Of a stretch of 30,107 bases of DNA, positions 924-30,107 are shown piece after piece. The notes under the pieces were generated by a model that was not told where the DNA came from, did no database searches, and saw only the letters and a program-made list of their open reading frames with translations. Source of the DNA: a virus; IMG/VR virus record IMGVR_UViG_3300031555_004811; one strand, 5' to 3'. Made by a program: the position numbers and the translations under genes. The first letter of the stretch is position 1; each line of letters starts with the position of its first letter.

Positions 924-1154
924 ATGTTAGAAGCAATAGGTAAAGAATTGAAAGTAATTAGAATTAGAAATGACCTATCTCTTGATGATGTTGCACATGA
1001 TATAAATATTAATAGAGAAACTTTAAGAAGATATGAAAACAATTCTAATGGATTATCTGTTGAAAGACTAGAAGAATTACTTAATTATTATAATATTGAA
1101 AAATCTATTTTTTTTAGCAATGTATGTGAATATATGCACGAAAAAAGCAATTAA
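924..1154 (+). CDS. Cro-like HTH_XRE transcriptional regulator
   Basis: HTH (LSLDDVAHDININRETLRRYENN). ATG 924 is preceded by GGAGGG. The upstream part of the track ORF (849-923) overlaps the promoter and operators. Confidence 0.8.
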   Translation: MLEAIGKELKVIRIRNDLSLDDVAHDININRETLRRYENNSNGLSVERLEELLNYYNIEKSIFFSNVCEYMHEKSN

Positions 1155-1165
1155 GAAGGAGTGAG

Positions 1166-1187
1166 ATTAAAATATGTAACCAATACA
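1166..1187 (+). repeat. Box a: ATTAAAATATGTAACCAATACA, abutting the SD of the 1199 gene
   Basis: A copy, with 3 mismatches, of the box at 1783-1801 and of the reverse complement of 29640-29661. Confidence 0.7.
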
Positions 1188-1198
1188 AGGAGGAATTA

Positions 1199-1414
1199 GT
1201 GTTATATAGTTATTTAAAAGAATATTTTTATAAAAATAAAATAAGTAATTATGAAATTGAAAGAAGAACAAAAATAAAACAATCTAAAATAAATTTAAGT
1301 TTAAATGGTAAAAGAAAACTTACTGCTGAAGAATTAATGTTAATCGCAATTAAATTTAATTTAGATTTAAACAAAATAAAAAAGATATTAAGCCAGTCGC
1401 CAAACAAGTCTTAA
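1199..1414 (+). CDS. Small HTH DNA-binding protein (XRE-like)
   Basis: GTG start behind AAGGAGGA. HTH-like segment ISNYEIERRTKIKQSKINLSLNGKRKLTAEEL. Confidence 0.6.
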   Translation: MLYSYLKEYFYKNKISNYEIERRTKIKQSKINLSLNGKRKLTAEELMLIAIKFNLDLNKIKKILSQSPNKS

Positions 1415-1811
1415 TATCTATACACAATTAATGAAGATACAACAATACTAGTATATTGCTGTATTTCCAGATTTAATACTAAGTCCACTACAGATATTTA
1501 TATTTAATATCCCAGTTAATTACTAGATTAATTGGTGTAGTAGTTTAACAATTACGAGTTTACTCTCTACAAATTACTTTTACTTGCCCCATAGTTGTTA
1601 AAACTTAACATATAGCTATCCAGCCTTATCTCTAGAAACTATCCAGTTACTTTATAACGAGAAAGTTAAGCACTTAGACAGGGCAAGTATAAAAACGCTT
1701 CTAATTATTTGAATCATCTCTTTCTTGCCATACAGGGCAAATAAAGTATATCAAAAAATAATTAGAAAATCAAATCAAAATAAAAATATGCAACCAACAT
1801 AAGGAGGAAAT
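1415..1811 (+). other. ORF-free structured leader or candidate ncRNA region (about 400 nt)
   Basis: No ORF above a few codons on either strand. It looks visibly less AT-rich than its surroundings. Complementary segments: 1581-1589/1681-1689 (9 bp) and 1724-1729/1735-1740. CTATCCAG occurs as a direct repeat at 1616-1623 and 1639-1646. Confidence 0.45.
1783..1801 (+). repeat. Box b: AAAATATGCAACCAACATA, abutting the SD of the 1812 gene
   Basis: Exact reverse complement of 29643-29661. It is followed directly by AGGAGG (1802-1807) and ATG 1812. Confidence 0.8.
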
Positions 1812-2012
1812 ATGAATATAGAAGAAATAAAAAATAAGGACTATATAAATGCAAATGAACTAATGCAAATAATTCCAAATCTAACTTATGATAATGCAAT
1901 AAAGTATATCAATGAAGTTAGAGAAGATATGAGAAATAAAGGCTATTGTATACCAATATCAAGACCTAAAGTAGCATTAACAAAATTAGTAAAGAAAAAA
2001 TTTGGCTGGTAA
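1812..2012 (+). CDS. Small DNA-binding protein, possible excisionase or early regulator
   Basis: 66 aa with strong SD AAGGAGGA. The pattern ANELMQIIPNLTYDNAIKYINEVREDMRNKGY....RPKVALTKLVKKKFG resembles small HTH Xis-like proteins of Firmicutes mobile elements. The functional assignment is tentative. Confidence 0.4.
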   Translation: MNIEEIKNKDYINANELMQIIPNLTYDNAIKYINEVREDMRNKGYCIPISRPKVALTKLVKKKFGW

Positions 2013-4310: not shown

Positions 4311-5159
4311 ATGAAGAAAGAAGAATTAATTCTAAAACTTGATGAATGGATTAATGAACAAAATTTTCAAGAGTATTCAAAAAATACATTAAGTCAATAC
4401 AAAGCAAATGTATTAAAGTTTATTGAGTGGTTGCCATCAGATGAAATAATAACTAAGACTACAACTATGAGATATAAAGAATATTTATATTCATTAGAAC
4501 CAAGACCAAAAACTAATAGTATTAATACTTGGATTATAGAGTTAAATAAATTTCTTAAATGGTTGTCATTGGAAGAATTAACATTAAAAAAAATAAAGCA
4601 ACAGTACAAAACTAGTAATGATGAAATATTAAGCATATCAGATTATAAAAGACTTTTAAGGTTTTCAAAAAAATTAGGATTTAATCAATTGTACTACATA
4701 ATGAAAACATTGGTAATGACAGGAATTAGAATATCAGAATTAAAATATTTTACTGTTGAAAGTATTAAGTCTAACTATATCTTAGTCTTCAATAAAGGTA
4801 AGGAAAGATATATTATTATTAGACAAGATTTAGCAAGAGAATTAAGAAAATATTGTAGGGAAAACAATATTAAATTTGGTTATGTATTTGTAAATAAGAA
4901 AACAAAAAAGATGCCAAATACATCAACTATATGGAGGCAAATGAAAAAGGTGGCAGGTGCTGCTAGAGTAAATAAAAATAAAGTTCATGCACATTCTTTT
5001 AGACATTTATTTGCTCAAATATATCTAGAAGAAAATCCACAAGACATAACAGGTTTAGCTGATTTAATGGGACATAATTCTTTAGAAACAACAAGAATTT
5101 ATACAAGAACATCAAATGTTCAAAAGAAGACTAAACTTGAAAAATTAAAATTTACATAA
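4311..5159 (+). CDS. Second tyrosine recombinase (XerC/XerD-like, 282 aa)
   Basis: The full catalytic set is visible: R (TGIRISELK), K (NKGKERY), HxxR (HSFRH), H (MGHNS), Y (TRIYT). An N-terminal SAM-like domain is present. Confidence 0.85.
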   Translation: MKKEELILKLDEWINEQNFQEYSKNTLSQYKANVLKFIEWLPSDEIITKTTTMRYKEYLYSLEPRPKTNSINTWIIELNKFLKWLSLEELTLKKIKQQYKTSNDEILSISDYKRLLRFSKKLGFNQLYYIMKTLVMTGIRISELKYFTVESIKSNYILVFNKGKERYIIIRQDLARELRKYCRENNIKFGYVFVNKKTKKMPNTSTIWRQMKKVAGAARVNKNKVHAHSFRHLFAQIYLEENPQDITGLADLMGHNSLETTRIYTRTSNVQKKTKLEKLKFT

Positions 5160-27746: not shown

Positions 27747-28190
27747 ATGAAAGACATTTTAACCACAATAAATGATAACCTTACATTAATTTTAACAGGG
27801 GTTGGTATAATTGTTGCAATAACTGAAAAATGGAAAAAAATACCATTTAAACCATTTACAAGGCTATTTAAATATATTGGTAATTTATGTAGAGATGAGG
27901 AAATGCATCAAAAAGTAGATAATATGACTAATAATTTAACTGAATTACAAAAAAGACATGATGAAGATGAAATGGATAGATTAAGATATGAAATATTAGG
28001 ATTTGAGAGAACACTAAGAAATTTAAAGAAAACTGAAACAGTATCACAAGAAGAGTTTATTACAATATTTGATATGGTAGAAAAATATCATATTTTAATT
28101 GAAAAACATCATAAGATGAATAACAAGTTTGAGAAAGCACAGGAATATATAACAGAAAAATATAAAATAATGTATGGAGCAAGAGTCTAG
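27747..28190 (+). CDS. Membrane-anchored coiled-coil protein in the moron position (unknown function)
   Basis: N-terminal TM LTLILTGVGIIVAIT followed by a helical domain. It lies between the endolysin and attP and has its own terminator. Confidence 0.55.
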   Translation: MKDILTTINDNLTLILTGVGIIVAITEKWKKIPFKPFTRLFKYIGNLCRDEEMHQKVDNMTNNLTELQKRHDEDEMDRLRYEILGFERTLRNLKKTETVSQEEFITIFDMVEKYHILIEKHHKMNNKFEKAQEYITEKYKIMYGARV

Positions 28191-28215
28191 AGAGTAAAAT
28201 CTCTAGTCTTTTTTT
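28187..28215 (+). terminator. Intrinsic terminator ending the late and lysis transcription unit
   Basis: CTAGAGA-GTAAAA-TCTCTAG hairpin followed by a T-run. Confidence 0.75.
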
Positions 28216-28231
28216 GTTGATATTTAATTTA

Positions 28232-28431
28232 TTTCACATCTAGATGATTACTAAAATGATAAAAAAATAGTACAAATGACTAGGTATGAGAATATAATAA
28301 ATCCTTAATTTACCTGTATTTATAGAAACGTAAAGTATTGTAAAACTTTTCCCTTATTCTCCACCAATAGGCAATTAACCCTTATTTTATAAGGGTTTTT
28401 ATTTTTTACATCTAGTTTCACATCTAGTTTT
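28232..28431. other. Candidate attP region
   Basis: Non-coding stretch adjacent to the 3' end of int. TTTCACATCTAG is directly repeated at 28232-28243 and 28416-28427, with TTTACATCTAG at 28405-28415; these are possible arm-type sites. Confidence 0.5.
28377..28407 (+). terminator. Orphan plus-strand terminator hairpin inside the candidate attP
   Basis: AACCCTTA-TTTTA-TAAGGGTT followed by TTTATTTTTT. No phage plus-strand gene ends here. Confidence 0.5.
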
Positions 28432-29544
28432 TTATAAATTGTTTAGTAAATCTACAATTTCATCTTGTACAGTAGGGAATAGATGCATATATGTTTTTTG
28501 CATAACATCTATTGTATGGCCCATACGGTCTGATAGCATTAAAAAGAATTTAGCTGTATCAGTTTGTCCTGATTTAATATATTCATTAATGAGTAAAGAA
28601 ACATGACTATGTCTAAATTCATGCATTGTAATTTCATTTACACCTGCTAATTTAAAATATGTTTTTTTATGTCTATCTATAGTTGTTGGTGCTAAATAAA
28701 CTGGTCCTCCAAAAACAAACCAATTATCTGAATAATCTTTATATTTAATTTGATTCAATTTATATGAGTATAAACATTCTTTTAATGTTTTACTCATTTT
28801 TATTTTTCTATTTTTATTAGTTTTTGTTGAAGTAATTATTGCTTTACCTTTATTTTTAGTGCATAAAGTTTTATTTATTTTAATTTCATTGTTATTAAAA
28901 TCTACATCTTCCCATGTTAAGGCAAGTAATTCTCCTTTTCTACAACCAGTATAATATGCAGTAAGAAAAAATGCTTTCCATAATTCATCATCAATGATTG
29001 ATATAAACTGGTTAAATTCAATTAATGTAATATATCTTAATCTTTTATCATCATCAATTATATCGTTATTTTTTCTTTTAAATCTGCCAAATAGACTAAT
29101 TGGATTTATTTCTAAACCATAATTTTTAATTGAATAATCAAATATGTTCTTTAATATATTTAAAATTTTATTCATATAATCTACAGTTAAATTTAATGAT
29201 TCAAGATTTTGGGCCCATTCTCTAATATTTGATATATTTATTTTGTTAATATATTTTTTTTCAAAATGAGGTAATATATGTTTTTCATAATCTTGTCTAT
29301 ATGTATATACAGTAGATGGTTTACTATATTTTTTTAAGTTTTCAAAATATTCATCAGCAACTAAATCAAATCTAATATTTATAGGATTATCATTTTTTAG
29401 AACAAACATTGATAATGCTTTTTCACACTCTTCACGAGTTTTATATTTTTTAGAAGTATATTGTTTATTATTTTTTGATTTTCTAAAATAATAGCATCTT
29501 CCATCTTTAGTTGGAGTGCCTTTATATATCTTATTTGCTTTCAT
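28432..29544 (-). CDS. int: Tyrosine integrase
   Basis: 370 aa. Catalytic R (GCRKGE), HxxR (HEFRH), H (MGHT) and Y (KTYMHL), with an N-terminal arm-binding/SAM-like region. It lies adjacent to attP and the repressor module. Confidence 0.9.
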   Translation of the reverse strand: MKANKIYKGTPTKDGRCYYFRKSKNNKQYTSKKYKTREECEKALSMFVLKNDNPINIRFDLVADEYFENLKKYSKPSTVYTYRQDYEKHILPHFEKKYINKINISNIREWAQNLESLNLTVDYMNKILNILKNIFDYSIKNYGLEINPISLFGRFKRKNNDIIDDDKRLRYITLIEFNQFISIIDDELWKAFFLTAYYTGCRKGELLALTWEDVDFNNNEIKINKTLCTKNKGKAIITSTKTNKNRKIKMSKTLKECLYSYKLNQIKYKDYSDNWFVFGGPVYLAPTTIDRHKKTYFKLAGVNEITMHEFRHSHVSLLINEYIKSGQTDTAKFFLMLSDRMGHTIDVMQKTYMHLFPTVQDEIVDLLNNL

Positions 29545-29561
29545 TTTACCAACTCCTTTTA

Positions 29562-29590
29562 TTTACAAATAATTAATATTTTGCTATAAT
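29562..29590 (+). promoter_or_regulatory. Near-consensus extended -10 promoter facing away from int
   Basis: TTTACA 29562-29567, a 17-bp spacer, TGcTATAAT 29582-29590. Confidence 0.6.
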
Positions 29591-29596
29591 ATAAAA

Positions 29597-29712
29597 GCAA
29601 AACTTAAAAAGATAAAAAATGATTTATTCTTTTTTACCTAAATATGTTGGTTGCATATTTTAATTAAGATTTGCATTTTGATTTATGTCCCTTGGCCGAG
29701 GGGCATTTTTTT
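29597..29712 (+). ncRNA. Candidate small antisense RNA of about 115 nt (promoter-to-terminator unit without an ORF)
   Basis: It is bracketed by the promoter at 29562-29590 and a terminator (stem 29686-29693/29698-29705, loop GGCC, T7 at 29706-29712). It contains the hairpin AAATATG-TTGGTTG-CATATTT (29640-29660). Bases 29643-29661 are the exact reverse complement of 1783-1801. Confidence 0.45.
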
Positions 29713-29738
29713 GTTAAAAAAGTTATCCACCACTATAT

Positions 29739-30074
29739 TTATTTATTAATGATATTTAAAATTTCGTTACATCTATTTTCTATAATGCTAATATAATTAT
29801 TTATATCATTAGTATTTGTAATGTAAGCTTTCCAAAATAGTTCATTTTTGTTACTTTGTGCATTAAATAGTGGGTTATTATAATGTTTCAGTTTATCTTC
29901 TTTTGTAAGAAATAATTTTATCCATTTTGAATTATTTGAATATTTAAGTCTTATTAAGTCATAATTGTAAAAGGTAAGTGTAGTATATGCTGTAGATTTC
30001 TCAATAATTGAAAAGTTAGATTTATTATATTTGTCAAATATTTTAATCCAATTTTCTAATATTTTTTTTCTAAA
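29739..30074 (-). CDS. Main body (111 codons) of the frame-interrupted gene between the repressor and int; no in-frame start codon
   Basis: Hand translation gives FRKKILENWIKIFDKYNKSNFSIIEKSTAYTTLTFYNYDLIRLKYSNNSKWIKLFLTKEDKLKHYNNPLFNAQSNKNELFWKAYITNTNDINNYISIIENRCNEILNIINK, then a stop. The frame contains no ATG, GTG or TTG. It continues from the 76..150 segment after a -1 shift in the A8 run. It spans the contig junction, so the ORF track misses it. Confidence 0.45.
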   Translation of the reverse strand, partial: FRKKILENWIKIFDKYNKSNFSIIEKSTAYTTLTFYNYDLIRLKYSNNSKWIKLFLTKEDKLKHYNNPLFNAQSNKNELFWKAYITNTNDINNYISIIENRCNEILNIINK

Positions 30075-30107
30075 TTATAGTTGTTGTTTTTTATGTTTTC
30101 TTTTTTT
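29981..30107. repeat. Right copy of the exact 127-bp terminal duplication (same as 1..127)
   Basis: Read directly; identical to bases 1-127. Confidence 0.95.

Follow-up and report, generated by a model that had tools for sequence, protein, structure and literature searches.

A predicted small antisense RNA encoded divergently from the integrase gene of a temperate phage, with complementarity to the Shine–Dalgarno regions of two early genes

The c4 RNA of phages P1 and P7 is a phage small RNA that acts in trans on the phage's own mRNA and exposes, in its loops, complements to two sites around the ribosome-binding site; its specificity differs between related phages, and this difference is the basis of heteroimmunity (PMC12197685). 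The sar RNA of phage P22 and the OOP RNA of phage lambda are small, terminator-ended phage RNAs that pair near the ribosome-binding site or the 3' end of an early or regulatory mRNA, and both support lysogeny (PMC12197685). A 2025 review of phage small RNAs, covering c4, sar, sas, OOP, IsrK, and others, describes nothing at a position divergent from int and mentions neither "integrase" nor "excisionase" nor "Gram-positive" (PMC12197685). RNA-seq of Streptococcus pyogenes detected, in prophages 370.3 and 370.4, small RNAs with no known function that lie between int and the gene beside it and that were confirmed by Northern blotting; one of them, the 89-nt Spy_sRNA779816 of prophage 370.3, has its own promoter and terminator and lies between int3 and the next gene (PMC4829319). 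These Northern-confirmed RNAs show that lysogens of other Bacilli express small RNAs divergent from int, which is not proof of homology with the RNA described below.

The DNA analyzed here (IMG/VR record IMGVR_UViG_3300031555_004811; the whole stretch of 30,107 nt is referred to as the window) is a complete contig from a temperate phage of uncultured gut bacteria, with a G+C content of ~25%. Bases 1–127 are an exact 127-nt overlap with bases 29981–30107, and the window represents a circular or circularly permuted genome of 29,980 bp. The gene order at the junction is int (minus strand), the small RNA unit, a minus-strand orf, cI (minus strand), a rightward promoter, and a cro-like gene. Rightward, the cro-like gene is followed by an HTH gene at 1199, a 397-nt spacer, a gene at 1812, and DnaD-like and helicase-loader genes. 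The int gene (28432–29544) encodes a tyrosine integrase (Phage_integrase) and is divergent from the RNA gene, and cI (150 to ~791) encodes a protein with HTH_3 and Peptidase_S24 domains. The early rightward promoter on the plus strand at 871–899 (TTGACA, 17 bp, TATAAT) matched the consensus at 12/12 positions, and no plus-strand promoter comparable to it was found between 900 and 1811. A transcript from this promoter is presumed to carry both of the target sites discussed below.

Several other features were observed in the same region. The minus-strand orf extending from the RNA gene to cI (29734–149) carries a one-base frameshift in a homopolymer, a T8 run at ~82–89, and its homologues in three relatives (L075, L078, and L084) are unbroken and 130 aa long; the frameshift may reflect either faulty assembly or a run whose length truly varies. 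A TGTG-N6-TGCAC-like motif is present three times: the copies at 848–862 and 878–891 flank or overlap the rightward promoter, and the copy at 1124–1139 lies at the 3' end of the cro-like gene, ~30 nt before the target site in the 1199 leader. All three are probable CI/Cro operators. The noncoding spacer between the 1199 and 1812 genes (1415–1811) folds at −73.8 kcal/mol, better than its shuffles (z −3.7). It is partly kept in L002, with an apparent compensated stem (GGGCAAG..CTTGCC vs. GGCAGAT..ATCTGCC), and it is missing in many relatives, where the homologue of the 1812 gene directly follows cro; on its minus strand (1512–1609), an Rfam search gave only a sub-threshold match, to PGK RNA (31.3 bits vs. 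a cut-off of 50.8). Besides int, a second tyrosine-recombinase gene of 282 aa lies in the early region (4311–5159), and an identical gene in L073 is annotated Phage_integrase. On the other side of int, homology with L002, L079, and L087 ends at one base, 28231/28232, ~200 nt past the int stop codon, and terminator-like hairpins at 28187–28206 and 28377–28397 adjoin this break, which is a probable attP core or prophage end.

The small RNA unit begins with a plus-strand promoter at 29562–29590 (TTTACA, a 17-bp spacer, and TGcTATAAT with an extended −10), which matched the consensus at 11/12 positions with the TG extension present and was the top-scoring site in 28000–30107. Transcription from this promoter would start 6–7 nt past the −10 box and end in a T-run, giving a predicted noncoding RNA of ~116 nt on the plus strand (29597–29712) with a minimum free energy of −27.1 kcal/mol (z = −3.1). 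The RNA is predicted to form stem-loop 1 (29597–29674), in which an outer stem, GCAAAACUUAA / UUAAGAUUUGC, surrounds a variable region and a seed hairpin. The antisense seed spans 29636–29665, and its exact 19-nt core (29643–29661) sits inside the hairpin AAATATG-TTGGTTG-CATATTT (29640–29660), which is part of the minimum-free-energy fold. A second complementary block (29675–29684) follows, and then an intrinsic terminator (29685–29712) that consists of a 9-bp stem-loop at 29685–29706, a GGCC loop, and a T-run to 29712; on the minus strand, no T-run follows this hairpin. The near-consensus promoter between int and the orf, the perfect hairpin, and the downstream terminator had all been proposed in the preliminary description of this DNA, which was made from the letters alone, and all three were recovered. 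The 14-codon ATG frame that it had listed as lacking a Shine–Dalgarno (SD) sequence was also seen by reading, at 29620 (MIYSFLPKYVGCIF, then a stop). No open reading frame in the unit was conserved across relatives, and a peptide-coding reading of the unit was dropped, the short frames not being kept in them. None of the Rfam 15 families matched the window at its gathering score, and a search of 29500–29780 at E up to 10 returned four chance-level matches, with C4 not among them.

The predicted RNA is complementary to two leaders of the early region. In the leader of the 1812 gene (site b, 1758–1811), bases 1783–1801 are the exact reverse complement of the RNA core and directly adjoin the SD AGGAGG (1802–1807), which is followed by the ATG at 1812. 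The second block of the RNA pairs with 1772–1781 in the same leader, and the wider complementarity covers 53 nt at 77% (1758–1810 vs. 29634–29686). In addition, CCU at 29637–29639 can pair with the AGG of the target SD over a 3-nt internal loop. In the leader of the 1199 gene (site a, 1164–1198), the complement at 1166–1187 is followed by the SD AGGAGG (1188–1193) and the GTG at 1199, and the duplex, as read, contains two G:U pairs and one A.C mismatch over 22 nt. Within it, a third copy of the core (1169–1187) has three differences, two of the three being G:U-compatible; three such matches were found in 0/100 dinucleotide shuffles, with a mean of 0.09. The core duplexes were calculated at −30.2 kcal/mol for the 1812 leader and −27.3 kcal/mol for the 1199 leader, with z values of −7.6 and −4.6, respectively, against shuffled leaders. 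When both strands of the whole genome were scanned, the top partners of the RNA, apart from its own locus, were 1751–1830(+) and 1141–1200(+). The preliminary description had reported the exact match abutting AGGAGG, the second block, and the imperfect 22-nt duplex; the first held when its coordinates and sequence were checked, and the other two held on reading. The interaction energies that it had suggested computing for both leaders agreed with pairing at each.

The main target gene (1812–2012, plus strand) encodes a small, HTH-like protein of 66 aa and heads the early replication operon, and the second target gene (1199–1414, plus strand) encodes a 71-aa HTH protein. The 66-aa protein fell in PHROG 989, a PHROG of unknown function, and carried no NCBI-style name. 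Its AlphaFold model, a confident one (pLDDT 90.8), is beta-alpha-alpha-beta-alpha; the top viral fold matches were uncharacterized or "helix-turn-helix domain" proteins (TM 0.71–0.75), and fold matches labelled excisionase were weak. This is probably a small DNA-binding protein. The "xis-like" label attached to the 1812 gene at the outset was not sustained, as the protein had no Pfam match and no PDB sequence match and its fold is that of a generic small HTH-like protein; to call it an excisionase would be a guess.

Collections of genomes, viromes, and metagenomes were queried for relatives with int, cI, and the 1812-gene protein, and exact-protein-sequence look-ups were added, for a total of 31 distinct units. 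The relatives are prophages carried by uncultured Bacilli, Erysipelotrichaceae, and "Tenericutes", in genomes assembled from metagenomes of rabbit, goat, and human gut. INPHARED nucleotide searches yielded no relatives of the region, and a protein search with the target gene was likewise empty; the exact 21-nt box and terminator sequence were absent from IMG/VR, and the arrangement was absent from Erysipelothrix phage SE-1. Because the window CI protein, used as a query against IMG/VR and metagenomes, retrieved only relatives at ≤64% identity, the fine-scale co-variation within the window's class comes from the exact-protein look-ups.

The promoter was conserved among these units: the −10 box was TATAAT or TAAAAT in 31/31, the best spacer was 17 bp in 30/31, the TG extension was present in 27/31, and a −35 box with at least a 4/6 match was present in 25/31. 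Every relative unit ended in a GC hairpin and a T-run of at least 6, a uniformity that is partly built in for the units from the pattern scan, in which the terminator was a selection criterion. The scan pattern was derived from the family's own members, which inflates the uniformity and leaves the complementarity test unaffected. Most of the RNAs start with AUAGAAAAA, which pairs with a downstream UUUUUCUAU and closes a stem-loop with a variable apex; the relatives share this architecture, in which an A-rich/U-rich stem at the 5' end encloses an apical region that varies. Many seeds open with UCCU or CUCCU, complementary to the SD. MAFFT alignments of the RNAs were structurally inconsistent, and for this reason no covariance model was built and no column-wise structural co-variation is claimed. 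The window RNA appears to belong to a family whose conserved scaffold comprises a closing stem rich in A at the 5' end, in many cases an anti-SD (UCCU), a seed that varies, and a terminator.

About 30 loci with the unit emerged from the scan. In almost every one, the longest same-strand complement to the RNA (within 7–13 kb) was 10–22 nt long and was located 5–24 nt upstream of a start codon, at a distance of 1.2–3 kb from the RNA. In most loci, the gene so targeted was clearly homologous to the 1812 gene (hmmsearch E 1e-23 to 1e-45). The seeds comprised about 20 unrelated sequences, each matched to its cognate translation-initiation region, and they differed among otherwise closely related phages. 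RNAduplex, applied to whole RNAs and 120-nt leaders, was noisy, since long AU-rich duplexes with large loops dominated, and it ranked the cognate leader first in 11/17 loci (13 if L040 and L042, near-duplicates that are mutually tied, are counted). The longest contiguous complement was therefore adopted as the measure. The longest Watson–Crick run was at least 10 nt in 14/17 cognate pairs, compared to a mean of 7.9 and a 95th percentile of 10 in non-cognate pairs. When 13 class representatives were permuted, the diagonal sum was 159 versus 106.8 ± 6.4, and 0/100,000 permutations reached 159.

The exchange of seeds was most evident in relatives with nearly identical proteins. In the IMG/VR relatives L001 and L002, Int is 96–97% identical to that of the window and the promoter is the same; homology ends at ~29604, the predicted RNA start, and the next ~100 nt are unrelated and again terminator-ended. 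This RNA contains exact complements (16+12 nt and 17 nt) to two sites in the early region, and the first site directly adjoins the SD of the homologue of the 1812 gene. In L003 (Int 60%), TTTAACGGTATGGTGG pairs with CCACTATACCGTTAAA with one G:U, together with a CUCCU/AGGAG pairing. In L079 and L083, the target protein is 95–97% identical to that of the window and the leader box is AAAATATGCGCCAA, compared to AAAATATGCAACCAAC in the window; the L079 RNA tracks its leader box, reading TTGGCGCATATTTT versus TTGGTTGCATATTTT in the window. The compensatory change from the window to L079 is thus TTGGTTGC/GCAACCAA to TTGGCGC/GCGCCAA, with a target protein that is 97% identical. L079 also has an L001-type 3' block in its RNA and a matching second block in its leader, and between L001 and L079, CAACAC/GTGTTG is replaced by CTACAC/GTGTAG, an A-to-T change in the RNA answered by a T-to-A change in the target. 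In L078, an A-to-G change in the target gives a G:U pair, the RNA being the same as in the window class. The alignment of related phages, suggested earlier as a way of finding compensatory changes, thus did reveal them, both between the window and L079 and between L001 and L079. The window's RNA/target class was invariant in most close relatives, and fine-scale co-variation within it was seen mainly in L079/L083 and L078. G:U-compatible changes appeared to exceed A.C changes (~8–10 vs. 3–4), an excess that is only suggestive. In L081, the complementarity is unbroken over 69 nt. Mosaic joints were located at the box edges, where homology to the window starts at 1777 in L079, at 1779 in L081, and at exactly 1169 in L084. 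The joints suggest that the box, SD, and gene travel as one module and the RNA as another, and that the two are kept matched.

A convincing target was absent for three units (L008, L059, and L011), and for the L019 RNA the match is to another gene. The site in L013 and L035 falls at ~+10 to +34 within the coding region, at or beyond the usual translational-block window. Two further observations concern other genes. In L021 (~9262) and L026 (~10019; both RNA-strand coordinates), a 14–22-nt complement abuts the SD of a 66–68-aa protein with a hydrophobic helix, MKKLKLRKWVKVAIAIILLVII..., which is not HTH-like and recalls a type I toxin–antitoxin system or a small membrane effector; a small membrane protein was the target only in these two loci. 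In L001 (2351–2367), and also in L002 and L031, a 105-aa ORF contains a second, conserved 17-nt complement to the L001-class RNA, which is followed by AGGAGG, and the L034 RNA instead matches the SD of a homologue of that ORF. The 105-aa ORF may, on this complementarity, be a second target gene in the L001 lineage.

Considering all of the evidence from sequence comparison, we put the probability at roughly 80% that the window encodes a trans-acting antisense RNA of ~116 nt, with its own promoter and terminator, that pairs with two early SD regions. The stand-alone trans-antisense reading first offered for this unit gains support from co-variation at both the module level and the fine scale and from the conserved promoter and terminator. 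In the proposed mechanism, the extended −10 promoter of the unit would drive the RNA and the terminator of the unit would end it. The seed, exposed by stem-loop 1, would pair twice with the early rightward mRNA, immediately 5' of the SD of the 1812 gene and of that of the 1199 gene, in each case also covering part of the SD. Pairing within the ribosome footprint would most likely block translation initiation and may also result in polarity on, or decay of, the downstream early operon.

The position of the gene bears on a different reading. In 33/33 units, including those retrieved via cI or the target protein, a tyrosine integrase gene of one type or another lay immediately beside the unit in divergent orientation, and the int start codon was 32–62 nt from the unit in these 33; in the window, 18 nt separate the int ATG from the −35 box of the RNA promoter. 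No minus-strand promoter-like site was found between the RNA promoter and the int ATG, and the nearest, and only, upstream site is at 29760–29732; therefore, any int mRNA would cross the RNA gene and be fully complementary to the RNA. The RNA would be cis-antisense to transcripts entering int, which fits the invariant adjacency. A cis effect on int is reasonable as an added function, and a single RNA could restrain int in cis as well as the early gene in trans. That the RNA is real but acts only in cis on int, through convergent transcription or a duplex with the int 5' UTR, and that its likeness to the leaders is a by-product of inverted duplication or mosaicism, is in our judgment unlikely. 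The invariant adjacency is in line with such a role, the extended similarity of 53–69 nt does look like an inverted duplication of the leader, and the mosaic joints coincide with the boxes. A passive duplication would decay, however, whereas ~20 unrelated seeds keep their cognate match as the best in the locus, compensatory changes are seen, and many seeds carry an anti-SD UCCU that pairs with the target SD; a cis role is, moreover, compatible with the trans-acting antisense RNA as an extra function.

Less probable again is that the box is a protein-bound DNA operator, or an RNA element, common to the int, 1199, and 1812 genes, with no small RNA and with the promoter and terminator incidental. 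Operators at distal positions occur in other temperate phages, the box is oriented alike with respect to int and to both early genes, and the box of the window holds a 7-bp inverted repeat, although the seeds of most relatives are non-palindromic. The distribution of the box among relatives argues against an operator: it is unrelated in L001 and L002 despite an Int that is 96–97% identical, it is changed in L079 despite a target protein that is 97% identical, and it is shared, together with the RNA, by L081 and L084, which differ from the window in their repressor and cro modules. Because Int, the target protein, and the repressor modules vary independently of the box, no candidate DNA-binding protein tracks it, and none of Int, CI/Cro, and the target protein was found to co-vary with it. 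The 1199 gene is missing from many loci. The inverted orientation, the extended −10 promoter, and the terminator were recorded as conserved in all 31 units (the TG itself in 27/31), and the sites lie 5–24 nt from start codons, which is not required of a DNA operator. The shared operator or cis-element, which the preliminary description had set out as its alternative, is thus disfavored. A CI-operator reading of the box was rejected, since the cI–cro repeats are a different motif (TGTG-N6-TGCAC) unrelated to it. An attP arm-site reading was also rejected: the box lies ~1.4 kb away from the likely attP core, because homology to several relatives breaks at 28231/28232, and Int at 97% identity occurs with an unrelated box. 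A chance or low-complexity match in an AT-rich genome of ~25% G+C, or a unit that encodes a 14-residue peptide from the ATG frame at 29620, is effectively refuted by the shuffles (0/100 with three matches), the duplex z values (−7.6 and −4.6), the permutation (0/100,000), and a short frame that has no SD and is kept in no relative.

A broader proposal, to which we give somewhat less than an even chance, is that the trans-acting antisense RNA of the window belongs to a widespread, undescribed "programmable" RNA family in prophages of gut Bacilli, possibly also of streptococci, in which the scaffold is fixed, the seed is interchangeable and provides a CI-independent immunity specificity and int is held down in cis. 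A resident prophage's RNA would then silence the first early-operon gene of an incoming phage with the same leader box, and such silencing would drive RNA/box pairs to diversify and to be exchanged as modules. Reassortment of the pair is independent of the CI module, which suggests a second immunity specificity missed by current prophage annotation. If expressed, the RNA would represent an RNA layer of lysis–lysogeny control in temperate phages of low-G+C gut bacteria, in which, to our knowledge, almost all known switches are protein repressors. The ~20 natural seed/target pairs on one scaffold amount to a compensatory-mutation series for recognition of the ribosome-binding region and are a possible toolkit of orthogonal translational repressors. 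The family may also explain the small RNAs beside int in streptococcal prophage transcriptomes.

In comparison with known systems, the streptococcal RNAs are alike in position and architecture only. S. pyogenes phages 315.3 (L090, 1249–1371) and 315.2 (L091, 1235–1330) contain a promoter, stem-loop, and terminator unit divergent from int, and these units and Spy_sRNA779816, each ~90 nt long, share with the window RNA the position, an own promoter and terminator, and a 5' closing stem; no clear complement to an early translation-initiation region was found for the 315.2 and 315.3 units in the first 6 kb. A type I toxin–antitoxin system was considered and rejected, as the targets in the window are soluble HTH-type proteins and the 14-codon frame is not conserved. 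The preliminary description had also invoked the kissing-loop geometry of CopA/CopT and RNAI/RNAII. Complementary loops are possible in the window: a hairpin is predicted on the RNA side, with the seed in or across its apical loop, and 1783–1801 can form a hairpin with a complementary loop. Unlike in those systems, the target-side hairpin is, by reading, limited to 4 bp at site b and is weaker still at site a; relatives show no evident counterpart, so that the geometry is not general. Loop–loop initiation of pairing may be entertained as a hypothesis. CopA/CopT and RNAI/RNAII are, moreover, cis-encoded controls of plasmid copy number, unlike the window RNA. The sar and OOP RNAs overlap their target gene, whereas the RNA gene of the window does not overlap the 1199 or 1812 genes; its two supported targets are remote, and only its possible effect on int would be of the cis-antisense kind.

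By mechanism, the closest system is c4 of P1/P7, although the window RNA is not a C4 family member and had no match to C4 or any other Rfam family. Like c4, the window RNA would pair in trans with two short sites adjoining SDs (1783–1801 and 1166–1187), and the ~20 distinct seed/target pairs of the relatives show a varied specificity with the pairs kept matched. The c4 RNA is processed from a transcript that also carries its target, whereas the window RNA has its own promoter–terminator unit ~2.2 kb from the targets, with cI between them. The target in the window is a small HTH-like early protein rather than icd/ant, the hosts are low-G+C gut Bacilli rather than enterobacteria, and the RNA gene is invariably found at the 5' region of int. 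The RNA is best described as a new family, or a variant, of phage trans-antisense RNAs, with its gene fixed beside int and with the translation-initiation region of the first early-operon gene and, in this phage, that of a second HTH gene as its predicted targets.
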